Virus record (IMG/VR): IMGVR_UViG_2585427964_000002
Direction: 5' to 3' (one strand)
Length of the DNA: 47,473 bases
Origin: a virus
Lineage: Duplodnaviria; Heunggongvirae; Uroviricota; Caudoviricetes
Within the stretch, counting starts at the first letter, position 1; each line of letters starts with the position of its first letter. The notes under the pieces were generated by a model, which searched no databases, was not told the DNA's origin, and saw nothing but the letters and a program-made list of their open reading frames with translations. Shown in pieces: positions 2-47,473 of the stretch. Both the position numbers and the translations under genes were made by a program.

Positions 2-1297
2 TTAATTTTTCATTGCTTCGTTATGGGGTATGGTTGGGGCAAACTCGCTTAACTGTGTATTTAACAAAGCTACCTGTGCATTATTGTTTTCAGACATCCA
101 TTTTCCGTATACCTGAAATACCATTTGCGCATCTGCATGGCCCATCTGGTTTGCTATAAATGCCGGGTTAGCACCAGCAGTCAGCGACCAGCAGGCATAA
201 GTATGTCTCGACTGATATGATTTTCGATGGCGGAGTCCGGCACGTTTTATCGCTGCGTCCCACATCTGCCTTATTGAGTCAACGGTAAAATGGTCACCAT
301 AATTTTTTACTCTCGCTGATACTTCAGGTTGAAAAACAAAGGTGCATTTTTGTTTTTCTGTTCTGCCATACTCTCTGAGGTGAACATCAATGATATGCTC
401 TTTGCTCAGTCTCGTTAATGTCATCTGACTCCGGAGAGCGTCGATTGCTGGCTTAATAAGATGAATGACCCGATTGGTTCCCGCCTGTGTTTTTGGTACC
501 GTGAAACGGTCTTTTGCTAAATTTCTCCTGATCATCATTGTTCCATTTTTCAGATCTATGTCCTCCCATCCAAGTGCACACAGCTCACCAGGGCGAACGC
601 CAGTATAAACAGAAACACACCATAAATTTTTGGCTTGCTGATTTCTGCACGCATCGATAAGACGGATGAATTCCTCCCGCGAAAGAGGATCCGGAATGGT
701 TCTTGATTCCTTTAATGGCGAGATCCCCTTAAACGGGTTATCTGCCAGGTAACCGTTATCAACACCAAACTGGAACACGGCGTTAAGATTTGTCATGTAA
801 TTATTTACTGTTACAGCCGATCTCCCTGGTTGTGTAACAATATAGTTACTTTTGGGGATCTGGTATCCAGTCAGTAGCTCTTTACGAACCTCCAGTAATT
901 TTTCTTTATTAATCGATGAGGCAAGATTTTTTTCACCGATTATGCTCAGGATATTTTTGATGACGGCACGGTATGTGTTGAGTGATGTTTTGGCAACTTC
1001 AGTTTCTTTCAGTGCCAGAAATTTTTCAGCCAGTTCTTTTATGGTTAAATCTTGTCGGGCCTCACCAAATTTTTCCAGATTGCGTGAGGAGGGAAACTGT
1101 TTTGCATAGTCGAAAACACCAGTTTTTATTGCGTAACAAACAGAGGCGCGTAGTTCACCTGCAACGCGCCTGTTTTTTGCTGTGTCAGGAACCCCCAGGT
1201 TTTCCCTGACTCTTACGCCTTTATAAACAAACCAGATACGTAATTTCCCTCCATGGTTTTCCACGCCTGTCGGATATTTCATTTCAACTTCTCTCAT
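2..1297 (-). CDS. int: Phage integrase, tyrosine recombinase family
   Basis: 431-aa ORF at the prophage end with xis directly upstream on the same strand. C-terminal region is tyrosine-recombinase-like (HxxR and RHTYACW context). Confidence 0.88.
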   Translation of the reverse strand: MREVEMKYPTGVENHGGKLRIWFVYKGVRVRENLGVPDTAKNRRVAGELRASVCYAIKTGVFDYAKQFPSSRNLEKFGEARQDLTIKELAEKFLALKETEVAKTSLNTYRAVIKNILSIIGEKNLASSINKEKLLEVRKELLTGYQIPKSNYIVTQPGRSAVTVNNYMTNLNAVFQFGVDNGYLADNPFKGISPLKESRTIPDPLSREEFIRLIDACRNQQAKNLWCVSVYTGVRPGELCALGWEDIDLKNGTMMIRRNLAKDRFTVPKTQAGTNRVIHLIKPAIDALRSQMTLTRLSKEHIIDVHLREYGRTEKQKCTFVFQPEVSARVKNYGDHFTVDSIRQMWDAAIKRAGLRHRKSYQSRHTYACWSLTAGANPAFIANQMGHADAQMVFQVYGKWMSENNNAQVALLNTQLSEFAPTIPHNEAMKN

Positions 1298-4079: not shown

Positions 4080-4169
4080 TGATAAACCTCATTACAGATT
4101 TAAGGGTGAACAAATCTCTGCCATTGCTGACATATAAGAATGAAACTGGATATTTATTACGGTGCTGTT

Positions 4170-4361
4170 TTAAAATCCTGCCGGGATTTCGTTATTATTC
4201 TGGTAAATAACTTTATCGACCGGATAACAGTTGCCTGGAATTTTCTGTTCGGTTGCTGCTGCCATACATTCCTGCATTGTTCTGTGAACACTGACTGCAA
4301 TATCAACTGGTTCTCCGGAAACAAGAAAAACCGTCAGAATAAGTGCAAATACTGGATTCAT
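4170..4361 (-). CDS. ydfD: YdfD-like small lysis/membrane protein
   Basis: 63-codon ORF from an internal Met of the 81-aa track ORF (MNPVFALILTVFLVSGEP...). Hydrophobic N-terminus. Start overlaps the dicB stop by 4 nt. Matches recalled K-12 YdfD length and position downstream of dicB. Confidence 0.6.
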   Translation of the reverse strand: MNPVFALILTVFLVSGEPVDIAVSVHRTMQECMAAATEQKIPGNCYPVDKVIYQNNNEIPAGF

Positions 4362-4546
4362 TGTGCATATCCTTTTGGCTGCAGACGTAAACGGGCCAGC
4401 ATTGAAACAATGCATACTTTATTTAATAGCTCCCGTTCTTGTTTTCTCTTGTTAATGGCATCTTCAGTAAATACTGGGTTACTGATAGTGACACCAATTT
4501 CAAAACAACCTTCAGACGTATTAACGTTTGGTAATAACGTTTTCAT
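4358..4546 (-). CDS. dicB: Cell division inhibitor DicB
   Basis: 62-codon ORF from an internal Met of the 97-aa track ORF (MKTLLPNVNTSEGCFEIGVTISNPVF...KRKQERELLNK...). Matches recalled DicB sequence and the dicF-dicB-ydfD order. Confidence 0.8.
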   Translation of the reverse strand: MKTLLPNVNTSEGCFEIGVTISNPVFTEDAINKRKQERELLNKVCIVSMLARLRLQPKGYAQ

Positions 4547-4711
4547 TATCGCGTCCTCAACAATGAACTTTGTGATGCAGTGCCTGGTGCCTCCAGGTGA
4601 CGTTAACCAGTTAACAATTAACGCCGGATACAGAGAATCCACCCATAACACTGTTTTTGGTTTTAACTGTTCCGCGTGCGCTCAGCCGCATTCACCGCAT
4701 CACAAAATTCA

Positions 4712-4775
4712 CTTTAAAAAGGGCGCACATCAGCCAGCAATGAAACTGATGCCGCCAAAGGTACCAATCAACATG
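4712..4775 (-). ncRNA. dicF: DicF-like small RNA
   Basis: Minus-strand sequence just upstream of dicB reads ...CTTTGGCGGCATCAGTTTCATTGCTGGCTGATGTGCGCCCTTTTT: conserved TTTGGCGG 5' block, a hairpin and a T-run as in canonical DicF, but the central region differs from the K-12 sequence as recalled. Ends approximate. Confidence 0.5.
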
Positions 4776-5025
4776 GAGTGTTGTGGCAGGGTTGTCACTT
4801 AAGCGTATGGTCAACCTGACAACCCGGTGTCCTCAACGGGGAAGGAATAACCCCGCCATACTTACCGCCGCGCCATTTCGCGGAGTGCCACAACCGGAAG
4901 CGCACGGTCGACGAAAATTTAACGACAGGCTATCTATGAACCAGCTACCTCGCCGTGCGCTTTCGCGTTATGTGCCTGCTTTTAACCACGTCAGGCGAGG
5001 TGGTATCCTTAAAATCACCACAGTT

Positions 5026-5601
5026 TTAAGGATTCATTAAGCAATGTCGCAACCACCAATAAATCCGCTTAAGAACATGAAAATTGATTACTGGTATAAA
5101 GCGCTTACAGTTGTTGGCGCTGCGTTGTTTGTCTTTAATGGAACGTCTTTTTTTGACAGATATCCCGTTGTTCCATTGGGTTTTTTGTCCTCCGGCATCT
5201 TTTTTATTGGTTTGGGGGAGTGGATTAATCACCCTCTCAAAGTGAGATTTATTGGTCCTGGAGTTTGGACTCGTGGATATAATCGTTCTTCGTGCGCACT
5301 CGGTATCATCTTCGACATACTTGGTTGTTTCCTGATTGTTACAGGAGTCGTCAAGTTCTTCTGATGTAAAACCGCAAATGGGGCACGTAACGGGAATTTT
5401 GAAAAGCGTTTCACCGGGTTCCAGAACAAAATTTTCTGCGGTCTGATTTTGCTTCTCATATTTGTGCTCCGCGTCATTGTGAGAGCACATTCTTATTCTG
5501 AGTGCCTGTTTAAACTCACTGAAGCTGAGAGCTTCTTCGCCTTCGGCAAGGCCTTCGAAGTATTCTTCGTAAGCCTTTTTCATGATTGTGTCGAAATCCA
5601 T
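5026..5601 (-). CDS. YdfB/YdfC-like protein (possibly an unsplit ancestral form; 3' extent uncertain)
   Basis: ORF beginning MDFDTIMKKAYEEYFEGLAEGEE... immediately downstream of ydfA in the dicB operon; contains a CPICG motif. The C-terminal 80 or so residues are K/R/N-rich low complexity and may be non-coding read-through. Competes with a plus-strand membrane-like ORF at 5044-5364. Confidence 0.35.
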   Translation of the reverse strand: MDFDTIMKKAYEEYFEGLAEGEEALSFSEFKQALRIRMCSHNDAEHKYEKQNQTAENFVLEPGETLFKIPVTCPICGFTSEELDDSCNNQETTKYVEDDTECARRTIISTSPNSRTNKSHFERVINPLPQTNKKDAGGQKTQWNNGISVKKRRSIKDKQRSANNCKRFIPVINFHVLKRIYWWLRHCLMNP

Positions 5602-5602
5602 A

Positions 5603-5758
5603 TCACTCACCTGAGTTTCTTTCCAGCCAGCGACGGGCACCATTTTCGGTTTTAAACGTTTTGCTTTTGGTATATGTCATCGCGGTGAACGTGCCGTCCT
5701 GGTTGGGAAACACGCCGTACACCAGATATTCGTTGTTGCCAAGATCGATAGTATCCAT
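5603..5758 (-). CDS. ydfA: YdfA-like protein (DUF1391-type)
   Basis: 51-codon ORF from an internal Met (MDTIDLGNNEYLVYGVFPNQDGTFTAMTYTKSKTFKTENGARRWLERNSGE), first gene after dicA in the dicB operon. Matches recalled YdfA. Confidence 0.7.
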   Translation of the reverse strand: MDTIDLGNNEYLVYGVFPNQDGTFTAMTYTKSKTFKTENGARRWLERNSGE

Positions 5759-5950: not shown

Positions 5951-6361
5951 TTATTGATGCTTGTTGCGTTTGCGAGCCTCTAATAGCTCGGTGAACAGGC
6001 GATTAAAATTCTCAACGCGGGCGCGGAGTTCGCTGAGTTGTGCTTGTTGCTCTGATTTAGGAAGTGCGCGATACAAACGCAGCATCTCTAACTCATCTTC
6101 CGATAAGTCTAAGGCACTATCGAGTGAAACAGGGGGAGCTGGTGTTTTGTCCTCGTCGCCAAACAGTATCCAGGTTGGTGAACATTGCAATACCTCGGCG
6201 AGGCGATGCAAATTTTGCCCGCGCGGGGCTGTATGGTCACTTTCCCATAATGAAATTGATGAGCCAGATACGCCAGCAGCTTTGCTTAAACCGTTTTGAC
6301 TTAAGCCTACCTGCTTACGTCTTTCTCTAATGCGTTGACCTAAAGTTTTCTCGTTCATATT
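5951..6361 (-). CDS. dicA: Prophage repressor, HTH XRE family (DicA/cI-like)
   Basis: HTH motif (GLSQNGLSKAAGVSGSSISLWE) and C-terminal ...LQCSPTWILFGDEDK...MLRLYRALPKSEQQAQLSELRARVENFN... matching recalled DicA. Divergent from the Cro-like gene. Start taken at the internal Met MNEKTLGQRIRERRK. Confidence 0.85.
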   Translation of the reverse strand, partial: NMNEKTLGQRIRERRKQVGLSQNGLSKAAGVSGSSISLWESDHTAPRGQNLHRLAEVLQCSPTWILFGDEDKTPAPPVSLDSALDLSEDELEMLRLYRALPKSEQQAQLSELRARVENFNRLFTELLEARKRNKHQ

Positions 6362-8154: not shown

Positions 8155-8577
8155 GTGGCAAAAGTTTTTACACAAGAAGAGCGGGAAAAAATTAAAGGGC
8201 AGGTGGTGGAACTCGTGCGCCAGAGCGGTCGTGAGACGCTACGGCAACTGGAAGCTAAAACAGGTGCGACAAGATATCTGATGAGCGTTCTTGCCAGAGA
8301 GCTGGTTGCCAGTGGCGATGTATACAACTCCGGCTACGGGTTATTCCCCTCTGAACAGGCGCGTAAGGACTGGCAAAACGCCCGCAAAAAACTCTCGAGG
8401 GCAAAGGTGAAGAAACCTGCTGTGGTTGATCCGGACCTTATCTGGTCATTACCTGACGGAGAAATACGTCGCTACGACAGGCGTATGAACATAATCTGTC
8501 GCGAGTGCCGGAAGAGCGAAGTTATGCAGCGGATTTTGGCATTTTATAAGGGAAATATTCGAACATTACCACGGTGA
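8155..8577 (+). CDS. Hypothetical phage protein
   Basis: 140-aa ORF with ordinary GC and codon appearance, last gene before the AT-rich island. Confidence 0.5.
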   Translation: MAKVFTQEEREKIKGQVVELVRQSGRETLRQLEAKTGATRYLMSVLARELVASGDVYNSGYGLFPSEQARKDWQNARKKLSRAKVKKPAVVDPDLIWSLPDGEIRRYDRRMNIICRECRKSEVMQRILAFYKGNIRTLPR

Positions 8578-8921
8578 ACGAAATTAAAGAGCATTACTTC
8601 AGATATGAATTGACATTTTGATGGCACATGGCTAGAACTGGTCTGGTTGTCAGCTTTGTATCAAAAACAGACATTTTGAGTTTCAATATTTGCTAATGAA
8701 TTAAGACTGATTCTTATCTATATCAATTCATACGAAATACTATGCAATACATCATTGAATTTTACTAGATAAGCGCTATTTGGGTAAATGGAGGTCGCAG
8801 AAGACATGCCGCTATTCGTTGGTTTTTATAGACTATATCACTTTCCTCTGCGGTCTCTATTTACCTAACAGCTTGGATTTCTTTGCATGCAAGTCTGTAA
8901 TATCGAGTGTAATCAAACGGA

Positions 8922-9953
8922 ATGTATATTACTTCCAAACTGCGGCGTATCGCGTTACGCTACTCAAGATTATTCCAACATGAGTCCTCCTATATGGCAC
9001 GAAAATTAATAATATTCGGCAACGGTCTTGGTATGGCTTTAGATCCTGCTCATTTTTCCTTAGACAGGGCGTTGGCAGAAATTTGGCATCGATCCAATTT
9101 CTTAAACGATGTCCATAAGCAACTTATCGAACGTTGTCTTCAGCGGCAAGGTCCACCGGCAGGGGAACATGAGTTGGATACCCTTCACCAAGCTATCACA
9201 TATTGTAAGGCTCTTGCGCAAATTGGAGAAGGAAACGAGCATTGGCTTACTGACGATGGACTAAACTTCCCCGAAATCACCGCCACTTATATCCACAAAG
9301 TTGCAACTAGTTTGCATAATTACGGTGAAGGGTTGCCGCAAAGATTCGAAAATGCGCTAGTGGAATTTGTAAAAAATACACGCACTCATATTGCGACATT
9401 AAACTATGACAAATTATTATACAACTCATTCATAGATAATGATATATTCAGCGGGTATGATGGGTATCTGGTTGATGGGATGTTAGGCCACGGATTTTCC
9501 GCCGAAGCGCTCGAACGGAAATATAATCGTAGGTTTGGTTATTATTTGCATTTGCATGGCTCACCACTATTTGTTAATCAGGGTGAGACCGTCTTAAAAC
9601 TTTCACGTTCTCAACTTACGGTTGACAGGGATGAGCCTAGCGAACATATAGTGTTAACGCATATAAAAAGGAAACCGTCAGTTATAGCAGCATCTAATGT
9701 TCTTTCTACGTACTGGGATTATTTGCAGTTTGCATTATTTGAATCAGAAGAAATAATACTGTTTGGTTATTCTGGCCTCGATGAACACCTTAACCTGCTT
9801 ATTCGGCCTTACCTAACCTCTAAGCATTTAAGAGTAATTGAGTGGAGCGGTGCAGGTGAACAAAATGACCGTGAGGCATACTGGCAATATTTGTTAGGAC
9901 GGGAAGTTACTGTAACCAGGTTGGATAACATCACTGACTTCATCAATTGGTAG
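8922..9953 (+). CDS. SIR2-like (SIR2_2/DHS-like NAD-binding fold) protein, candidate NADase defence effector
   Basis: Ordered motifs of the defence-associated SIR2 family: Rossmann strand plus glycine loop KLIIFGNGLGMAL, catalytic-Asn motif ATLNYDKLLY, catalytic-His motif YLHLHGSPLF, and ILFGYSGLDEH. Alternative start at ATG 8994; neither start has a strong Shine-Dalgarno. Visibly AT-rich relative to flanking phage genes. Confidence 0.6.
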   Translation: MYITSKLRRIALRYSRLFQHESSYMARKLIIFGNGLGMALDPAHFSLDRALAEIWHRSNFLNDVHKQLIERCLQRQGPPAGEHELDTLHQAITYCKALAQIGEGNEHWLTDDGLNFPEITATYIHKVATSLHNYGEGLPQRFENALVEFVKNTRTHIATLNYDKLLYNSFIDNDIFSGYDGYLVDGMLGHGFSAEALERKYNRRFGYYLHLHGSPLFVNQGETVLKLSRSQLTVDRDEPSEHIVLTHIKRKPSVIAASNVLSTYWDYLQFALFESEEIILFGYSGLDEHLNLLIRPYLTSKHLRVIEWSGAGEQNDREAYWQYLLGREVTVTRLDNITDFINW

Positions 9954-9959
9954 CACAAT

Positions 9960-9997
9960 GCGAAGTTAGTATCGAGAGTATACGGTTCTAACTTCGC
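9960..9997 (+). other. Perfect 10-bp inverted repeat (GCGAAGTTAG...CTAACTTCGC) forming a stem-loop 7 nt after the SIR2-like stop
   Basis: Read directly; the 18-nt loop contains a GTATAC palindrome. No downstream T-run, so not a canonical intrinsic terminator. Confidence 0.5.
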
Positions 9998-10123
9998 TGA
10001 GCTGAAATATACACTTTACCTTCATTTCATTCTTTAGATGAACACCCAATAGTTGTATTGAATCATTGAAGAGGCAGTCTCATATTTATCAGTATTGGTA
10101 TACGTCCAATACAGGAGGTTATC

Positions 10124-10231
10124 GTGTTGGCTCTGACGTGTGTGTTGGCTATTGTGGCTGTGCTGGTAATTTATTGTCTTGTTGTTGCTTTCATGGAGCG
10201 ATTTTCTGATTGGCGAGGTAGAGGGAGTTAA
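10124..10231 (+). CDS. 35-codon single-pass membrane peptide (type I toxin-like)
   Basis: AGGAGG Shine-Dalgarno 5 nt upstream of GTG. Translation MLALTCVLAIVAVLVIYCLVVAFMERFSDWRGRGS: 22-residue hydrophobic helix plus charged tail. Below the 60-aa ORF-track cutoff. Confidence 0.4.
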   Translation: MLALTCVLAIVAVLVIYCLVVAFMERFSDWRGRGS

Positions 10232-10413
10232 GTAAAATTGCTGCGGGTGCTTGAGGCTATCTGCCTCGGGCATGAACACCAACGGCAGATAGAGAAAAGC
10301 CCCAGTTAACATTACGCGTCCTGCAAGACGCTTAACATTAATCTGAGGCCAATTTCATGCTAGACACATGTAGGTTAGCCTCTTACGTGCCGAAAGGCAA
10401 GGAGAAGCAGGCT

Positions 10414-10569
10414 ATGAAGCAGCAAAAGGCGATGTTAATCGCCCTGATCGTCATCTGTTTAACCGTCATAGTGACGGCACTGGTAACGAGGAAAGACCTC
10501 TGCGAGGTACGAATCCGAACCGGCCAGACGGAGGTCGCTGTCTTCACAGCTTACGAACCTGAGGAGTAA
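10414..10569 (+). CDS. hokD: Hok/Gef-family membrane toxin HokD (RelF)
   Basis: 51-codon ORF MKQQKAMLIALIVICLTVIVTALVTRKDLCEVRIRTGQTEVAVFTAYEPEE matching recalled HokD. An in-frame upstream extension (track ORF from 10357, 70 aa) is mok-like. Confidence 0.85.
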   Translation: MKQQKAMLIALIVICLTVIVTALVTRKDLCEVRIRTGQTEVAVFTAYEPEE

Positions 10570-12445: not shown

Positions 12446-12820
12446 ATGCTCATAGATTTGGTTTTACCTTACCCGCCGACGGTGAACACTTACTGGCGAC
12501 GCCGTGGCAGCACATATTTTATCTCGGAGGAGGGAAAGCGTTATCGCCGGGCTGTGGCGCTTATTGTTCGCCAGCAGCGGCTGAAATTAAGCCTGTCCGG
12601 AAGGCTGGCGATAAAGGTGATTGCAGAGCCACCGGATAAGCGTCGTCGCGACCTGGACAATATCCTGAAAGCACCGCTGGATGCGCTGACGCATGCGGGA
12701 GTGTTAATGGACGATGAGCAGTTTGATGAAATCAATATCGTTCGTGGTCAGCCAGTATCTGGTGGACGTATGGGGGTGAAGATTTACCCCATAATGCATG
12801 AAGAGCAGGTCAAAAAATGA
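12446..12820 (+). CDS. rusA: Holliday junction resolvase RusA
   Basis: 124 aa with the RusA signature region ...DKRRRDLDNILKAPLDALT... and typical size and position upstream of Q. Confidence 0.85.
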   Translation: MLIDLVLPYPPTVNTYWRRRGSTYFISEEGKRYRRAVALIVRQQRLKLSLSGRLAIKVIAEPPDKRRRDLDNILKAPLDALTHAGVLMDDEQFDEINIVRGQPVSGGRMGVKIYPIMHEEQVKK

Positions 12821-13638
12821 AACTGGAAGATTTACCGAAATACTACTCCCCAAAATCCCCTTGCCTGACCGATGCATCGGCTTCAACGTCAAAAGATGCG
12901 CTGAGTATCACTGATGTGATGGCCGCGCAGGGCATGACACAGAATCGGGCTGAGATGGGGTTTTCTGCGTTCCTGGGGAAAATGGGCATCAGTATGAATG
13001 ACAGGGCACGGGCAACAGAATTACTGGCAGATTATGCACTCAGTCGGTGCGATCGTGTGGCGGCGTTGAGAAAACTTCCGGCAGAAATAAAACCGGTAGT
13101 GATGCGCATTATGGCTTCGTACGCTTTTGAGGATTATGCCCGCAGCGCAGCGAGTAAAAAGCAGTGCCCTTGTTGCTATGGGGAAAAATTTATTGAAAGC
13201 GTAGTTTTTACAAACAAGGTCCAGTATCCGGATGGTAAGCCGCCGGTATGGGCAAAGTGTACGAAAGGTGTGTATCCGTCTTACTGGGAAGAATGGAAAA
13301 AAGTCAGGGAGGTGGTAAAAGTTGCCTGTCCGGAGTGTGGCGGAAAGGGTGAGGTTTCCACCGCCTGTAAGGATTGCCGTGGGCGTGGTGTCGCCATTCA
13401 CCGTGAAGAGTCGGTAAAACGTGGTATGCCTGTTATCAGAGACTGCCAGCGTTGTGGTGGTCGTGGCTATGAAAGACTACCATCAACGGAGGCATTTAAT
13501 GCTATATGCGAGGTGACAAACCAGATAACACGCGCGTCATGGGAAAAAACAGTTAAGAAATTCTATGATGCGCTGGTGACCCGGTTTGATATTGAAGAAG
13601 CATGGGCTGAGCGGCAGTTAAAAAAGGTAACTAGGTAA
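12817..13638 (+). CDS. Q: Late-gene antitermination protein Q
   Basis: 273-aa ORF overlapping the rusA stop, with several CxxC zinc-binding pairs, at the position preceding the late promoter, tRNAs and lysis genes. Confidence 0.75.
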   Translation: MKLEDLPKYYSPKSPCLTDASASTSKDALSITDVMAAQGMTQNRAEMGFSAFLGKMGISMNDRARATELLADYALSRCDRVAALRKLPAEIKPVVMRIMASYAFEDYARSAASKKQCPCCYGEKFIESVVFTNKVQYPDGKPPVWAKCTKGVYPSYWEEWKKVREVVKVACPECGGKGEVSTACKDCRGRGVAIHREESVKRGMPVIRDCQRCGGRGYERLPSTEAFNAICEVTNQITRASWEKTVKKFYDALVTRFDIEEAWAERQLKKVTR

Positions 13639-15031: not shown

Positions 15032-15460
15032 ATGGGTTTTCGTAGCGCATCAATTCTTACGTTGATTATTAGTGGGATTATTATCGGGTGCAGTGATGCT
15101 GTATCGACAAATTATCATGACCGTACATCATATTACTCCGATAAAGCAATAGAGACACAGTATGTGAGTTCATCTGAACGTACTTCTGATGTTAGTGAGG
15201 ATATCCGTCTGTATGCCCATCAAATCAAGAGCGCCATCGAAAAACAGTTCGGGGATGCGAGTAAGTATTCAGGAAAAGAGTGTACACTGAGAATGCATAT
15301 GGCCCCGAATGGCCTTCTACTGGAGGTTAAAAGAGAAAGTGGAGACCTCGATTTATGTCGTGAAGCGATGAATGCGATAAAGAATGCTGATATACCTGCC
15401 CCCCCTTCGCCGGAAGTATATAAAGTATTTCAAAATGGGGTGCTGGATTTTAAACCCTGA
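15032..15460 (+). CDS. Outer-membrane lipoprotein with TolA C-terminal (domain III)-like domain
   Basis: Signal peptide plus lipobox IIGC|S. C-terminal ...KQFGDASKYSGKECTLRMHMAPNGLLLEVKRESGDLDLCREAMNAIKNADIPAPPSPEVYKVFQNGVLDFKP closely mirrors the recalled TolA C-terminus (...AVYEVFKNAPLDFKP). Confidence 0.7.
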   Translation: MGFRSASILTLIISGIIIGCSDAVSTNYHDRTSYYSDKAIETQYVSSSERTSDVSEDIRLYAHQIKSAIEKQFGDASKYSGKECTLRMHMAPNGLLLEVKRESGDLDLCREAMNAIKNADIPAPPSPEVYKVFQNGVLDFKP

Positions 15461-15610: not shown

Positions 15611-16006
15611 GTGGGATTAAAGAAAATCGTTATGTTGACTTTTTGGGTCGGTTTTGTTGCGGGATGCACACCTTTACACCCTTCAGATTGCCACAAAACT
15701 ACTGCTACAGGTAGTTGCAGTTCAGGACGCTGGGATGATCAGGATGAATGGGGGGCGCAAGCGCGGGGAATCAGAGCTGCAATTAATGCCAAACTTGATG
15801 AGCCGCATAACTGGAAAGGGAAAAAATGCAGGTTGCATATGGAATTCTCTCAGGATGGCACGGCGTTAAAAATATCTACCAGTAACGGTGATAAAGCCTA
15901 TTGCGAAGCGATAAAGTCCGCAGCTCATAAAGCCAAATTTCCGGCCTTCAACAATCCGGAAGTCTACAGAGATTTTCAGAAATCTGGCTTTGACATGCGA
16001 GGTTAG
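15611..16006 (+). CDS. Outer-membrane lipoprotein with TolA C-terminal-like domain (paralog of 15032-15460)
   Basis: GAGGAG Shine-Dalgarno before a GTG start. Lipobox VAGC|T. C-terminal ...KGKKCRLHMEFSQDGTALKISTSNGDKAYCEAIKSAAHKAKFPAFNNPEVYRDFQ aligns by eye with the first lipoprotein and TolA domain III. Confidence 0.7.
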   Translation: MGLKKIVMLTFWVGFVAGCTPLHPSDCHKTTATGSCSSGRWDDQDEWGAQARGIRAAINAKLDEPHNWKGKKCRLHMEFSQDGTALKISTSNGDKAYCEAIKSAAHKAKFPAFNNPEVYRDFQKSGFDMRG

Positions 16007-16789: not shown

Positions 16790-17813
<1,024 letters not shown>

Positions 17814-18175
17814 ATTAATATTAAATCGGATTATTTTTAGCGCTGAATGTGAAATTTAAATAAAAAGGACTCTTCCATGAGTCAAAATCCTTGAAATCTT
17901 AAGGGTAAGATAAAAGGTCATTAGACAGAATGACACGTTTTATTAATAAATAAAGCTATTGTTTCATTCGTGTGTTTTTCTTTACAAAAGTAATCCTTGC
18001 TATGGTTGGTTAATCATGCGTTAATGGTGTTCTGGTTTGTTACAAAATTATCTGAAGCAGTCATTGTTATAATTTTATTATTTGTACCTCTTGAGATTTC
18101 CTTGTTGGTTTTTCTCTCTGATATTTTTTTCGGACCATTCTGCCCAAGGGCTAACTTCTTCAAAAGGTAATAATG

Positions 18176-18388
18176 ATGTCTAACAAAATGACTGGTTTAG
18201 TGAAATGGTTTAACCCTGAAAAAGGTTTTGGTTTCATCACGCCGAAAGATGGTAGCAAAGATGTGTTTGTGCATTTCTCAGCTATTCAGAGCAACGATTT
18301 CAAAACGTTAACTGAGAATCAGGAAGTCGAATTTGGTATTGAGAACGGACCTAAAGGCCCTGCAGCTGTTCATGTAGTGGCACTTTGA
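18176..18388 (+). CDS. cspI: Cold-shock protein, CspA family
   Basis: [23 protein letters not shown]...[12 protein letters not shown]1/RNP2 cold-shock-domain motifs. Long AT-rich 5' UTR upstream. Symbol assigned by position (Rz-csp-ynfN-gnsB), moderate certainty. Confidence 0.8.
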
Positions 18389-18593
18389 GGTAGAAAATAT
18401 TACAAACCATATTCACTTTAGATGCCCGTGTTGCCATGGTTCTCAGTATAGAACATCATCTTTTGATGTTTCTGACAGAAATCCTTTCGGGGCAAAATGT
18501 ATCTTTTGTAAATCAATGATGATTACATTTGATAATATTTCACAATACTTAAATGTTAGCCATCTGTCGTTAGATTTAAGAAAGTGAAAATGA

Positions 18594-18616
18594 AGGCTCC
18601 TTCGGGAGCTTTTTTG
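18594..18616 (+). terminator. Hairpin plus T-run (possibly bidirectional terminator)
   Basis: GGCTCC-ttcg-GGAGC followed by TTTTTT, with an A-rich run upstream. Confidence 0.4.
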
Positions 18617-18662
18617 CTTAGTGTCTAGTCGATGGATACTCACATATTACGGTAACATTATG

Positions 18663-18890
18663 AAAAAAATAATAGTTTTTTTTAACTCTGAACCAGCAAT
18701 GGTAGTGCCAGTGATGACCGGAGTTAACACCATCATGCGTGAATATCCAAATGGCGAAACAACACACCTCACTGTAATGGCTGCAGGGTTTCCATCTCTG
18801 ACCGGAGATCATAAAGTCATTTATGTAGCAGCGGATCGACATGTAACTTCAGAAGAAATTCTGGAAGCAGCAATGAGACTCTTGAATTGA
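18663..18890 (+). CDS. YnfN-like small protein
   Basis: Internal Met start (MKKIIVFFNSEPAMVVPVMTG...) of the 89-aa track ORF; lies between csp and gnsB as in K-12 Qin (from memory). Confidence 0.45.
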   Translation, partial: KKIIVFFNSEPAMVVPVMTGVNTIMREYPNGETTHLTVMAAGFPSLTGDHKVIYVAADRHVTSEEILEAAMRLLN

Positions 18891-19062
18891 TTTGATTCTA
18901 ATACATTGATAATAAATGATAATCATCTTTATCTGTTTGTGTGAAATTTAGACCGTCGTATGTTGATTATTGCGATGTTTCATCTTATCTTTTATACGTT
19001 TGCTCCATATAATTGACACTACTGTGTACCAGGACAGTCATAACAGACTAAAAGAGGAAATG

Positions 19063-19236
19063 ATGAACATTGAAGAGTTAAAAACAAAAACAGAAGCAGA
19101 TATTTCTGAATATATAACAAAAAAAATCATTGAGCTTAAGAAAAAGACCGGGAAAGAAGTTACCAGTATCCAGTTTACTGCACGGGAAAAAATGACTGGT
19201 CTTGAAAGCTATGATATCAAGATTGATTTAATCTAG
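19063..19236 (+). CDS. gnsB: GnsB (Gns family) protein
   Basis: 57-codon ORF MNIEELKTKTEADISEYITKKIIELKKKTGKEVTSIQFTAREKMTGLESYDIKIDLI with AGAGGA Shine-Dalgarno; matches recalled Gns family. Confidence 0.75.
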   Translation: MNIEELKTKTEADISEYITKKIIELKKKTGKEVTSIQFTAREKMTGLESYDIKIDLI

Positions 19237-19301
19237 CATGTTTATAGTATTAGCATCAATTTCTCATCAGATGCTATTCAACAATACAAATTACCCATAA
19301 A

Positions 19302-19324
19302 CCTCGTTTTTACGGGGTTTTGTT
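19302..19324 (+). terminator. Intrinsic terminator downstream of gnsB
   Basis: CCTCG-ttttta-CGGGG hairpin followed by a T-run. Confidence 0.4.
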
Positions 19325-19365
19325 ATATTTAAACATTACCGAATAGATATAAATTGGATTTGCCC

Positions 19366-20271
19366 CTATATTTCCAGACATCTGTTATCACTTAACCCAT
19401 TACAAGCCCGCTGCCGCAGATATTCCCGTGGCGAGCGGTAACCCAGCGCACTATGCGGATGCCATTCGTTATAATGCTCGAACGCCTCTGCAAGGTTCTT
19501 TGCTGCCGTTAACCCGTCTGGTTTGGGCATGATACTGATGTAGTCACGCTTTATCGTTTTCACGAAGCTCTCTGCTATTCCGTTACTCTCCGGACTCCGC
19601 ACCGCCGTGTTCTTCGGTTCAAGTCCCAACATCCGGGCGAACTGGCGTGTTTCATTAGCCCGGTAGCATGAACCATTATCCGTCAGCCACTCCACTGGAG
19701 ACGACGGAAGATCGTTGCCGAAGCGGCGTTCCACCGCTCCCAGCATGACGTCCTGTACTGTTTCACTGTTGAAGCCGCCGGTAGTGACCGCCCAGTGCAG
19801 TGCCTCACGATCACAGCAGTCCAGCGCGAACGTGACACGCAGTCTCTCTCCGTTATCACAGCAGAACTCGAACCCGTCAGAGCACCATCGCTGATTGCTT
19901 TCTTTCACGGCCACTCTGCCTGTATGTGCCCGTTTCGATGGCGGTACAGCAGGTTTTCGCTCAAGCAACAGCGCATTCTGGCGCATGATCCGGTAAACAC
20001 GTTTGGCATTGATCGCAGGCATACCATCAAGTTCTGCCTGTCTGCGAAGCAGCGCCCATACCCGACGATAACCATACGTTGGCAGCTCTCCGATAACATG
20101 GTGTATACGGAGAAGCACATCCGTATCATCAGTGTGACGACTGCGGCGGCCATCCATCCAGTCATCGGTTCGTCTGAGAATGACGTGCAACTGCGCACGC
20201 GACACCCGGAGACAACGGCTGACTAAGCTTACTCCCCATCCCCGGGCAATAAGGGCGCGTGCGCTATCCAC
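19366..20271 (-). CDS. insD: IS2 transposase OrfB (InsD)
   Basis: 301-aa ORF with DDE transposase region, inside the IS2 boundaries. Confidence 0.9.
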
Positions 20272-44263: not shown

Positions 44264-44854
44264 TTATATGTCAGGTGTCTGAAGTTTTGCTTTGGCTCTT
44301 AAAATGGTTTGCCGCGAGGTTTTGAATTCCCGGGCAATGGCACTTATACTTACACCTGACTTAATTCGTTCGAATACCACCTGTTTCTGTTCTTCATTTA
44401 ACACAGGTGGTCGACCAAAACGTTTCCCTGCGCCGCGGGCTCTTACTATCCCGGAATGAGTGCGTTCAAGTAAAAGGTCTCGTTCAAATTCAGCGACTGC
44501 TGAAATTACTTGCATCATCATTTTTCCTGTTGGACTGGTCAGGTCAATGCCCCCCAATGCTAAGCAATGCACTCTGATACCTGTTTCGGTCAGTTGTTCC
44601 ACTGTTTTCCTGATATCCATTGCATTACAACCAAGGCGATCCAGTTTTGTCACAATCAATTGATCACCACATTTCAGGCGAGCAAGCAACCGGTTAAAAC
44701 CAGGACGCTCACTGGTTGCTGCTGAGCCGCTAATGTGTTCTTCGATTATTTGCTGAGGTTTGATTTTAAAACCTGCACTTTCGATTTCCCGGCGTTGATT
44801 TTCGGTGGTCTGATCCAGCGTTGATATCCGACAGTAAGCAAAAATTCGAGACAT
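44264..44854 (-). CDS. pinQ: Serine recombinase / DNA invertase (PinQ/PinR-like)
   Basis: 196 aa with N-terminal catalytic region (YCRISTLDQ...; Ser-recombinase motifs) and C-terminal HTH; matches the recalled 196-aa PinQ/PinR class. Confidence 0.85.
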
Positions 44855-45170
44855 AGTGAGATTCTATACGAAATTGGTGTTCATATCATAATGCATCTCA
44901 GAAAATAATTTTGATTATTTTTGTACATATTTGTATGTACACGTTCGAAAATAAACGAATGCGTATGCAACCCCGTAATTTTGGTGAGACCCAAAATCGA
45001 TTTTGTGAAAAATGGCTTTAACTCGGTTTGTTTTTCGAGTTCCGGGCGGACTCAAGGAAGAAGAATAGTGTTGCGTGTTATTTTAACCAGATTTCAAGTT
45101 GTTTGGTCGTGGAAAAGTGGAGCAAAATGTTGTTAAAGTGGAAAAATGATAAAAAAGTAAGTTTATTATA

Positions 45171-45404
45171 TTACATTTTACCATTTAAATTTTGGTTGTC
45201 TTTAAGAACTGATATCGCTGTTTGTAATAATTCTTTGTTATCCAGCCATGATTTTTTCTTTATGTTTCCTTCAATGTAATCAAGCAATGTTCTGGTATTG
45301 ATAGGTCTTCCCTGTTTTGCTACTTCCACTACAGCATCCCCTAGGATAATTCTTACTTCAGGAAGCTGCGCAGGGAACCACTTTAGGGTGTCTTTTGATT
45401 TCAT
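45171..45404 (-). CDS. ydfK: YdfK/YnaE-like small protein
   Basis: Internal Met start (MKSKDTLKWFPAQLPEVRIILGDAVVEVAK...) of the 88-aa track ORF; adjacent to pin and the ydfJ junction as in K-12 (from memory). Confidence 0.55.
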   Translation of the reverse strand: MKSKDTLKWFPAQLPEVRIILGDAVVEVAKQGRPINTRTLLDYIEGNIKKKSWLDNKELLQTAISVLKDNQNLNGKM

Positions 45405-46189
45405 GAAGATATTCCTTAAAATATTATTGATTTTCATTGCGATATTGTATGTCTGATTCAGGATATGTTGGCTTATACATCGGTTTTGTCTGGGTTATTG
45501 GATATGCCAATCCCTAATTTTATTAGGGCATGACTAAAAATGCTGAATATGATAAGGAGAGAAGTGATTATCAGTATGCTGTTCATATAGCCTCGAATTA
45601 GTAATGTGTTATATATGATATAGTTGACAATTTTTATCTTGGGTGTTCTTAAAGTTCGTAGATAAACATTGTCGTTTCAGGTATACAGGAATGCTAACAG
45701 GTGGCAGCAAAAATCAGGCGGTTTATGGCGCAAGCTGAAGCGGCAACTGCAAACTATCTTATGCAGAGACTCTACACGGATTGGGTTTAAAAGTATACAT
45801 AGATAACAGTTTTTATCTGAAGAAGAAAAATATCAAGGTGATATAGCCTATATGCCTTTGATGCGGAGGAATGAATGTGATGGGAGTGATGTATCTGAAT
45901 AGTTGAAAAACCGCAGACACGCCTTATGCAAGAACGTGCTGCGGTTGGCTGGTAAATTTTTCGATAGTGTGAGTATTGAATGATTTCCAGCCGTTCTTGA
46001 TTTTACGCATAAATCCATGAAAAAACTACTTATCTGTTGGGGAGTTTTTTTGGGGCATATATGGGACAGAAATAGGCCCCAGATAGACACTGAGATCGAA
46101 CTTAGGATGCTTTTTAAAAAATGCAACTATCTGAAAAAACCTAGAAAACGCCAAGGAAACCACAGGATGGGAAAAAACACCTGTGAATT

Positions 46190-47473
46190 ATGGATTTCCA
46201 GTTATATTCGCTCGGCGCAGCGTTGGTGTTTCATGAAATATTTTTTCCTGAATCATCAACGGCAATGGCGTTAATTTTGGCAATGGGAACCTACGGTGCA
46301 GGTTATGTGGCGCGTATTGTCGGAGCATTTATTTTCGGCAAAATGGGCGACAGAATAGGGCGTAAAAAAGTGCTCTTTATTACCATCACCATGATGGGGA
46401 TCTGTACCACCTTAATTGGTGTGTTACCGACCTATGCACAGATTGGTGTTTTTGCCCCCATCTTGCTGGTGACGCTGCGTATTATTCAGGGGTTGGGTGC
46501 AGGTGCGGAAATTTCCGGTGCCGGTACGATGCTGGCGGAATATGCACCAAAAGGTAAGCGCGGAATTATCTCCTCATTTGTAGCTATGGGAACTAACTGC
46601 GGAACCTTGAGCGCAACGGCAATCTGGGCCTTTATGTTCTTCATTCTCAGTAAAGAGGAACTGCTGGCGTGGGGATGGCGTATACCGTTCCTGGCGAGCG
46701 TTGTCGTGATGGTCTTTGCTATCTGGTTACGTATGAATCTGAAAGAAAGCCCGGTCTTTGAGAAGGTTAATGACAGCAACCAACCCACAGCAAAACCTGC
46801 ACCTGCTGGTAGCATGTTCCAGAGCAAATCCTTCTGGCTGGCAACAGGGCTGCGTTTTGGTCAGGCGGGTAACTCCGGGTTAATTCAGACTTTCCTTGCA
46901 GGCTATTTAGTGCAGACGTTATTGTTTAACAAAGCAATTCCAACAGATGCATTGATGATTAGTTCGATTCTCGGCTTTATGACCATTCCGTTCCTTGGTT
47001 GGTTATCCGATAAAATTGGTCGCCGGATCCCGTATATTATTATGAATACCTCCGCGATTGTGCTGGCATGGCCAATGCTTTCTATCATTGTAGATAAAAG
47101 CTATGCCCCGAGCACCATTATGGTTGCACTGATTGTGATTCATAACTGTGCGGTGCTGGGATTATTTGCTCTGGAAAACATTACCATGGCAGAAATGTTC
47201 GGCTGTAAAAACCGCTTTACCCGGATGGCTATTTCTAAAGAAATTGGTGGTCTTATCGCTTCCGGTTTTGGTCCTATCCTGGCGGGTATTTTCTGCACCA
47301 TGACGGAATCCTGGTATCCGATCGCCATTATGATCATGGCATATTCAGTAATTGGTATAATCTCTGCGCTGAAAATGCCAGAGGTGAAAGACCGTGATTT
47401 AAGTGCGCTGGAAGACGCTGCGGAAGATCAACCGCGTGTTGTAAGAGCTGCGCAACCTTCCAGAAGTCTGTAA
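46190..47473 (+). CDS. ydfJ: MFS transporter, N-terminally truncated host gene (ydfJ-like) at the prophage junction
   Basis: 427 aa of multi-TM hydrophobic protein with MFS motif GKMGDRIGRKK. Only one TM helix precedes that motif, so TM1 is missing, consistent with 5' truncation by prophage integration. Confidence 0.8.
   Translation: MDFQLYSLGAALVFHEIFFPESSTAMALILAMGTYGAGYVARIVGAFIFGKMGDRIGRKKVLFITITMMGICTTLIGVLPTYAQIGVFAPILLVTLRIIQGLGAGAEISGAGTMLAEYAPKGKRGIISSFVAMGTNCGTLSATAIWAFMFFILSKEELLAWGWRIPFLASVVVMVFAIWLRMNLKESPVFEKVNDSNQPTAKPAPAGSMFQSKSFWLATGLRFGQAGNSGLIQTFLAGYLVQTLLFNKAIPTDALMISSILGFMTIPFLGWLSDKIGRRIPYIIMNTSAIVLAWPMLSIIVDKSYAPSTIMVALIVIHNCAVLGLFALENITMAEMFGCKNRFTRMAISKEIGGLIASGFGPILAGIFCTMTESWYPIAIMIMAYSVIGIISALKMPEVKDRDLSALEDAAEDQPRVVRAAQPSRSL

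Follow-up and report, generated by a model that had tools for sequence, protein, structure and literature searches.

How a SIR2-like enzyme could serve in antiphage defense without any of the partners described for such enzymes is the question raised by a gene in the viral record IMGVR_UViG_2585427964_000002 (Caudoviricetes; 47,473 nucleotides (nt), hereafter the window, meaning the whole stretch of DNA that was analyzed). The window is a complete Qin-like lambdoid prophage that runs from an integrase gene (2-1297, minus strand) to a pin-type invertase gene (44264-44854, minus strand), and the gene lies in it within an AT-rich insert upstream of hokD. To our knowledge, every characterized SIR2 defense system pairs its NADase with a sensor, be it SLOG plus ThsB, HerA, pAgo/APAZ, STAND, the C-terminal domains of the DSR proteins or KomAB. 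Our analysis suggests, with a probability of about one half, that the gene is a self-contained prophage cargo of the SIR2_2 (immune-type sirtuin) kind, which would defend the lysogen against other phages by depletion of nicotinamide adenine dinucleotide (NAD+).

The first-pass annotation of this DNA had assigned a SIR2 fold with the catalytic motif set to an open reading frame (ORF) at 8922..9953 on the plus strand, and fold, motifs and ORF all stood up to examination. The translation contains the four quoted motifs, which in the numbering of the 8994 start are KLIIFGNGLG at 4-13, TLNYDKLL at 135-142, HLHGS at 186-190 and FGYSGLDEH at 257-265. The window protein matched Pfam SIR2_2 (PF13289) with 26.5-26.7 bits against a cutoff of 24.5, and 35 of 35 aligned relatives matched as well. 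An AlphaFold model built on the 35-sequence alignment was confident (predicted local distance difference test 87.3, predicted template modeling score 0.87) and consisted of a single domain, with a Rossmann NAD-binding core, an all-helical small domain and no zinc module. Its top Foldseek match was the Sir2 of E. coli Sir2-HerA (8sub_A, E 5.5e-11), followed in the structural ranking by KomC (14.0), ThsA (13.9) and canonical sirtuins (13.1, 12.9, then at most 11.6), with Avs5 (11.3-11.5) interleaved among the latter and FAM118B (10.7) and SirTM (10.3) lower. Sequence identity to these structural matches is only 10-18%, and neither a single-sequence search nor the family profile found any match among PDB sequences.

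Within the family, the NAD-site and catalytic motifs are conserved. Across 100 representatives (31-66% identity), G9, N10, G11, Y138, D139, H188, G189, K227, L237 and D263 are invariant, and N137, H186 and the FGYSG-D-HLN block are nearly so. Judged by motif, these positions represent the sirtuin glycine loop, N-x-D motif and HG motif, and on the same grounds we take the conserved residues to be the counterparts of ThsA N112/H152 and of their DSR2 equivalents. The protein has only two cysteines, C48 and C71, with no CxxC pair, and so differs from the canonical sirtuin deacylases (CobB/SIRT), whose small domain holds a Cys4 zinc ribbon. Absence of the zinc module is a hallmark of SIR2_2 proteins, which are regarded as NADases rather than deacetylases (PMC12700824), and the SIR2_2/SIRim clade overall has 12-fold more antiphage neighbors than the sirtuin clade (bioRxiv 10.1101/2024.09.18.613514).

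The family itself can be delimited. A word-indexed search returned 642 homologs, and a HMMER profile pass over 1.84 billion representatives gave 351 hits at E <=0.001 (197 at <=1e-30), a family size that counts clusters at 50% identity. Lengths among the matches listed (150 of 351) were 135-397 amino acids (aa), full-length members having about 310-397 aa, and no fusions were seen. Since there are only 351 hits and no listed member exceeds 397 aa, the family appears to be a small and sharply bounded one of single-domain proteins. Neither NCBIfam nor PHROGs gave a hit for the window protein. What is already known is the RefSeq label "SIR2 family protein" and the fact that SIR2 NADases are a well-known theme of defense.

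Among 5,426 complete E. coli genomes, 46 carried the gene, always as a single chromosomal copy. Two E. coli alleles could be distinguished, the window allele in 16 genomes and an allele of about 89.5% identity in 30, listed examples of which are O55:H7 and porcine enterotoxigenic E. coli strains. Between the alleles, synonymous divergence (dS) was 0.38 and non-synonymous divergence (dN) 0.055, and the resulting dN/dS of 0.14 indicates that the gene is under purifying selection. This ratio and the 642 homologs place the gene beyond a chance reading frame. Plasmids yielded one match, a distant one from Marinobacter, and there was no homolog among predicted viral structures.

The prophage occupies the rspB/ydfJ insertion site, which is also used by K-12 Qin, and it is degenerate in some strains. 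Within it, the borders of the insert are well marked. On the left, the sequence shared with thousands of E. coli prophages breaks off precisely at the DUF977 stop codon (8577); on the right, E. coli prophage homology is back at about 10203, just before the promoter-like site of the hokD locus. The insert between them (8578-10203, 1.6 kb) has a GC content of 39.7% versus 49.6% for the window, which puts it at the 4.7th percentile of equal-sized windows, and GC at third codon positions (GC3) is 0.375 in the SIR2-like gene versus 0.51-0.54 in the flanking genes. The AT-rich island described in the first-pass annotation is therefore confirmed by overall GC content and GC3 alike, and homology borders and composition also bear out its proposal that the gene is cargo in the slot that holds relBE in K-12 Qin. 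The insert shows the marks of a moron or of hotspot cargo, since its composition is atypical, its homology borders are sharp and related prophages hold other cargo at this site, and on this basis the gene is best described as horizontally acquired cargo of a Qin-like prophage, placed between the replication module (DUF977) and hokD.

The alternative cargo deserves description, since it defines the character of the slot. The K-12 Qin order is dicA-dicC-ydfX-ydfW-(flxA, ydfV)-relB-relE-hokD-rem-ydfU, with relBE next to hokD, in agreement with the first-pass annotation. Copies of the DUF977 gene were located at 6,318 sites in 4,083 E. coli genomes, and the region downstream of it was surveyed in seven sampled prophages in addition to K-12 Qin. 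A comparison across prophages had been proposed to see whether cargo alternates at the site, and it does: besides relBE, the slot held a 798-aa AAA ATPase that is the PADLOC candidate PDC-S06 (1067 bits), a cII-like gene paired with a PD-Lambda-2_C/beta-like gene, an orphan methyltransferase, an alpha/beta hydrolase and runs of small nin-like ORFs. In one sampled genome, DUF977 is followed by genes that do not belong to a prophage, for a BCCT transporter and a DUF2254 protein, and hokD is missing. Gene content thus marks the DUF977-to-hokD interval as a variable cargo slot with a strong defense flavor, which behaves as a defense hotspot.

Outside E. coli, the gene occurs in several kinds of mobile DNA. 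The gamma-proteobacterial clade that includes the window, from which copies at 66-90% identity are described here, differs in its genomic company from the family at large. Its V. parahaemolyticus homolog (73% identity) is part of an array of integron cassettes next to IntI, where CcdAB and a Mrr-type nuclease are neighboring cassettes (L098, 4773-11858). The Citrobacter farmeri homolog lies in an integrase island and adjoins Hachiman, the Lonsdalea homolog is likewise in an integrase island, and that of Serratia plymuthica adjoins SoFic. In Chromohalobacter, the homolog's island also contains HipA, Fic, AbiE, NYN and a deoxyribosyltransferase plus QueC; that of S. rubidaea adjoins an SMC-type ATPase with MComp1/CTD1 (conflict genes) and a transposase fragment, and that of Pantoea adjoins P2-like Ogr and DinI genes. 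A copy of 90% identity outside any prophage (L107) has a TacAT/IS110 context. Ten large neighbors scanned at loci of 57-79% identity included SNF2 helicases, a GHKL ATPase and an HNH nuclease. Other copies stand alone between housekeeping genes, in Klebsiella, in two Aeromonas species and at locus L106 (near rpoD/dnaG).

If the gene were one half of a system, a companion should recur beside it. In 80 loci from GTDB species representatives, ORFs of >=70 aa within 6 kb were collected, and 1,011 neighbor proteins were clustered (82 loci). No conserved neighbor gene emerged; the largest neighbor cluster was present at 6 of 82 loci, so that no neighbor of >=70 aa is common to more than 6 of them, in agreement with the earlier description of a stand-alone gene without the described partners. 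In the 47-kb window, the ORF overview, scans of some ORFs and the PGAP (Prokaryotic Genome Annotation Pipeline) annotation of a related shorter prophage revealed no HerA, ThsB/TIR, pAgo or STAND gene.

Two small genes were considered as partners nonetheless. The 35-aa hydrophobic ORF downstream of the SIR2-like gene extends into the promoter region of hokD. The second E. coli allele (L002/L007) and E. albertii retain it at a length of 29 aa, with only conservative hydrophobic replacements, and it has neither a RefSeq annotation nor a PADLOC match. It is missing beside the 90%-identical L107 copy and beside all other homologs examined. Being confined to the E. coli/E. albertii prophage copies, it was rejected as a partner, and it could instead act independently as a small toxic or membrane peptide. 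The joint action with this peptide or with hokD that had been suggested earlier is not supported, given the absence of the ORF beside L107 and the other relatives, and hokD belongs to the shared prophage backbone, with its own promoter and sok-type leader. Homology of L107 to the window covers 8649-10006 only, and because the 35-aa ORF is not kept and this homology is so restricted, the moving unit is the gene plus its 5' leader, sometimes with the hairpin that follows the stop codon. Separately, six alpha-proteobacteria of three orders (Rhodobacterales, Sphingomonadales and Rhizobiales) have a gene of about 200 aa, without any Pfam match, that adjoins the SIR2-like gene at its 5' end or overlaps it there. 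It is a partner candidate in that alpha-proteobacterial subclade only; it has no homolog in the window, and the genes upstream of the Lonsdalea and Chromohalobacter copies are not related to it, so it was set aside as a general partner.

The limits of the gene itself also required attention. The working start is most likely the ATG at 8994, giving 319 aa, because this is the PGAP call, the family begins at M-x-R-K-L in the 35-sequence alignment, and most homologs have stop codons in frame upstream of the equivalent Met, many of them with an ordinary Shine-Dalgarno sequence there. Several enterobacterial copies keep the 24-codon in-frame extension (8922-8993, plus strand) open, but a frame break interrupts it in Serratia and a stop codon in Pantoea; the 343-aa form starting at 8922, which had been offered as an option, is therefore unlikely and was rejected. 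In the window allele, the ATG is preceded by CCTCC and not by a Shine-Dalgarno sequence. An upstream ORF (uORF) of 40 codons (8887-9009, plus strand) stops 13 nt past the SIR2 start codon, and both it and the extension are open in three alleles (window, L002, L107). As the replacements are mostly non-synonymous, the candidate of a coding uORF or antitoxin in the leader was not adopted and the frames were provisionally treated as non-coding.

The leader travels with the gene. The exact sequence of 8578-8993 is found only in the 16 genomes with the window allele; the second allele matches it at 88% identity, and some 345 nt accompany the gene into the non-prophage context of L107. A promoter-like site can be seen by eye, with TTGACA (8610-8615), a 17-nt spacer and TAGAAC (8633-8638), the second allele having TAAAAT as its -10. 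RNAalifold gave no conserved RNA structure and no covariation in the leader, and Rfam had no match upstream of the gene. The leader also contains an imperfect 18-nt inverted repeat (arms 8713-8730 and 8756-8773), the outer arms of which (CTTATCTA and TAGATAAG) are identical in the 88% allele, and this repeat may be a regulator-binding site. On the other side of the gene, the perfect 10-bp inverted repeat reported after the stop codon is present, inside 15-nt arms, and folds at -22.1 kcal/mol (z = -3.75). It has no U-tract downstream and falls within some 100 bp that the second allele (L002/L007) lacks, although L107 has it; for these two reasons the hairpin was accepted neither as a terminator nor as a defining part of the unit.

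Comparison with the characterized SIR2 defense systems places the window gene outside them. Its nearest structural relatives, the Sir2 subunits of Sir2-HerA/Nezha (8sub, 8j4u, 8w9l, 8yhx), are about 340-400 aa long versus 319 aa here, and at 14-18% identity they resemble the window protein in fold only. The PADLOC SIR2 model of the HerA type gave 23 bits (E 7e-6), below family membership, and an adjacent HerA was found at none of the 82 loci; HerA/DUF87 is not among the 25 of 119 neighbor Pfam families tabulated, these being the commonest ones, each matching at least two of 138 neighbors. KomC of Kongming works with KomA/KomB and a nucleotide signal, none of which accompanies the window gene. 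Thoeris ThsA needs a SLOG or Macro/TM sensor domain plus ThsB, whereas the window protein is a single 319-aa domain and no TIR gene lies nearby in the window or in the 82-locus neighbor sets. DSR1/DSR2 have a large C-terminal sensor region and about 1,000 aa in total, as opposed to at most 397 aa among the listed matches of this family. Avs5 fuses a STAND NTPase and sensor repeats to SIR2, and SPARSA combines an APAZ domain with an adjacent short pAgo, neither extra domain nor pAgo neighbor being present here; the DSR1/DSR2, Avs5 and SPARSA proteins, at 570-1,000+ aa, all have large sensor domains or partners. The PADLOC Aga_SIR2 models gave 21-27 bits. By sequence and gene content, the window gene thus lacks the defining features of Thoeris, DSR, Sir2-HerA, SPARSA and Avs5.

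Closer in architecture are two groups of stand-alone proteins. The PADLOC candidate PDC-S21 is a single-gene type with a profile length of 336, and 73-76 of 100 family representatives match it weakly (best E 1.6e-13); the window protein gives 21-22 bits over profile positions 20-211 of 336 (about 55%). Because these matches are no better than those to pAgo- or HerA-associated SIR2 models, PDC-S21 is a sister family at most. DUF4917 proteins (PF16263), including SliP, are of similar size (about 320 aa) and likewise stand alone. Weak DUF4917 matches occur in 25 of 35 relatives (best E 7e-8), and the window protein has none even at E = 1. The SliP gene of C. jejuni is in a dnaK/grpE neighborhood and is not prophage cargo, unlike the window gene, and its product has been reported as a secreted host-directed deacetylase (PMC10421069). 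Vertebrate FAM118A/B, which act as a paralog pair, belong to a distant eukaryotic clade.

Taken with the genomic company, fold and motifs suggest how a self-contained defense gene of this kind would work. Expressed from its own promoter in the lysogen, the SIR2-like enzyme would be held inactive until infection switched it to NAD+ hydrolysis, perhaps through a change of oligomeric state or through a phage product bound directly by the helical domain, and loss of NAD+ would then abort the infection. SIR2_2 effectors are typically kept inactive and are activated by a change in assembly, as in Sir2-HerA, ThsA, Avs5 and FAM118B (PMC12700824, PMC13434337). In a member without a sensor, on/off control would have to come from the helical small domain or from a switch that responds to assembly or to a metabolite. 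A stricter version, in which one enzyme of about 320 residues, partnerless and sensor-less, both detects infection and destroys NAD+ and so forms a minimal SIR2 immune module, is a tentative proposal that we hold at rather less than even odds; detection would then depend on the helical small domain or on a metabolite- or assembly-dependent switch.

A number of observations weigh against a defensive NADase. A search of 50,697 deposited phage genomes gave no homolog, and the close homologs in Klebsiella and the two Aeromonas species are lone inserts with no defense neighbors. The 138 immediate neighbors at 75 loci, each from a separate species, are mostly housekeeping genes with few matches to defense models; enolase (five times) and nicotinate phosphoribosyltransferase (NAPRTase; three times) recur among them across the family, as do GatB, GyrB and LepA. 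Distant alpha-proteobacterial relatives hold conserved positions after enolase or NAPRTase, which implies apparent vertical inheritance and possibly a non-immune role. No consensus promoter passed in a scan upstream of the SIR2-like gene, the site seen by eye at 8610-8638 included. In the literature we found nothing on the family, its two RefSeq protein accessions, PDC-S21 or any comparable stand-alone SIR2 defense gene, and the only characterized protein near the family, the DUF4917 protein SliP, is a reported deacetylase. A sensor-less NADase also requires some off-state that is so far unexplained.

In the distant branch, five Rhodobacteraceae relatives (L068, L077, L078, L081, L083) lie directly downstream of enolase and four others (L058, L065, L066, L085) probably follow the NAPRTase gene, an NAD salvage gene, all in the same orientation; these assignments come from a comparison of cluster sizes and lengths to Pfam counts. 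Such positions suggest that relatives in that branch may serve metabolism and not immunity. They also favor the main rival explanation, an NAD-dependent protein-modifying enzyme (deacylase or ADP-ribosyltransferase) that acts on a host or phage protein and is regulatory or host-directed like SliP or SirTM. The lack of a zinc module and the order of the structural matches argue against it, and we regard it as unlikely. More doubtful is the alternative that the gene is one component of a larger system, with a partner that works in trans or escapes detection because it is small or variable. The Sir2 subunits of Sir2-HerA, the closest solved relatives, do require HerA (PMC13434337), the 35-aa ORF has a perfect Shine-Dalgarno sequence kept in both E. 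coli/E. albertii alleles, and the abutting gene of about 200 aa is seen at loci from three alpha-proteobacterial orders. Yet neither small gene follows the family, as described above, no HerA-like gene is near any locus, and the Vibrio copy in an integron cassette argues for a self-sufficient unit.

The position of the gene would also fit a toxin, since the same slot holds relBE in K-12 and adjoins hokD. It could then be the toxic half of a prophage addiction or stabilization module, a constitutively dangerous NADase restrained by its long leader, by the uORF or by an unrecognized antitoxin. The 416-nt leader with a uORF open in three alleles would suit such control, and toxin-antitoxin modules flank homologs (CcdAB in Vibrio, TacAT at L107, ParE/Phd in Pantoea). 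However, no small partner gene is conserved across the family, the changes in the leader ORF are mostly non-synonymous and its RNA structure is unconserved, most homologs have an ordinary Shine-Dalgarno sequence and no leader homology, and the lone chromosomal copies have nothing to stabilize, all of which makes this explanation improbable. Least credible is a decaying remnant of a larger SIR2 system with no present function. The protein is short relative to DSR1/2 or ThsA and its host prophage is degenerate in some strains, but conservation across the 351 clusters extends over the full length of 319-345 aa, with no longer relatives among the 150 matches listed, dN/dS is 0.14, the catalytic residues are invariant and the single-domain model is confident, so that the remnant reading is already contradicted by the data.

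The features of the locus, together with those of related loci mentioned above, are collected in the table.

Coordinates of features in the window and at related loci
Feature	Sequence and position	Strand	Remarks
DUF977 gene	window 8155..8577	+	final backbone gene left of the insert; PGAP label DUF977
AT-rich upstream region/leader of insert	window 8578..8993	+	36.1% GC
SIR2-like coding sequence, 319 aa	window 8994..9953	+	SIR2_2/"SIRim"-type; PGAP "SIR2 family protein", WP_001533280.1
Hairpin 3' of stop codon	window 9960..9997	+	perfect 10-bp arms 9960-9969/9988-9997
Small hydrophobic ORF, 35 aa	window 10124..10231	+	GTG start, AGGAGG 6 nt upstream
Right backbone junction and hokD locus	window 10204..10569	+	hokD coding sequence 10414-10569, PGAP label hokD
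Promoter-like site, hokD locus	window 10210-10238	+	promoter scan
sok/hok leader	window 10245-10419	+	Rfam sok RF01794, 115 bits
Alternative DUF977-to-hokD cargo	L089 4025-6421; L091 4784-6419; L088 3920-4276		PDC-S06, cII-like/beta-like pair, methyltransferase
Upstream gene of about 200 aa	L044 7342-8001; L054 7385-7990; L059 7402-8004		
Upstream gene of about 200 aa	L060 6362-6976; L074 7375-7989; L079 7382-7996		

Elsewhere in the prophage, two more AT-rich stretches of about 36% GC were observed. One (17500-19500) has an IS3-family transposase ORF (rve, HTH_21; 19366-20271, minus strand) just downstream, and the other (44500-46500) surrounds the end with pin and ydfK. Two adjacent plus-strand ORFs (15032-15460 and 15611-16006), situated downstream of the Q antiterminator gene (12817-13638), contain TolA C-terminal domains (E 2e-23 and 1e-14), and this pair could be a moron affecting Tol-dependent entry of phages or colicins. 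In the early-left region, the ORFs at 4140-4802 (plus strand) and 5026-5643 (minus strand), of 220 and 205 aa, had no Pfam or PADLOC match.

Whatever its activity, the gene belongs to a family of 351 clusters that is at present without experimental annotation, and if its product modifies proteins, it would be a regulator of a kind unusual for a prophage. Its location is further evidence that Qin/Rac-like prophages have, at the DUF977-to-hokD junction, a cargo slot in which defense-type genes alternate. Should the minimal immune module prove true, the fold affinity to the Sir2 of Sir2-HerA would make the family a free-living relative or a precursor of that subunit, and a one-gene unit would be seen to travel through prophage slots, integron cassettes and defense islands. 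A conserved, mobile and partnerless SIR2 protein of 319 residues would then pose a clean question, namely how such an enzyme is kept in its off-state and how it is switched on, and the gene offers a very small and easily cloned test case for it.

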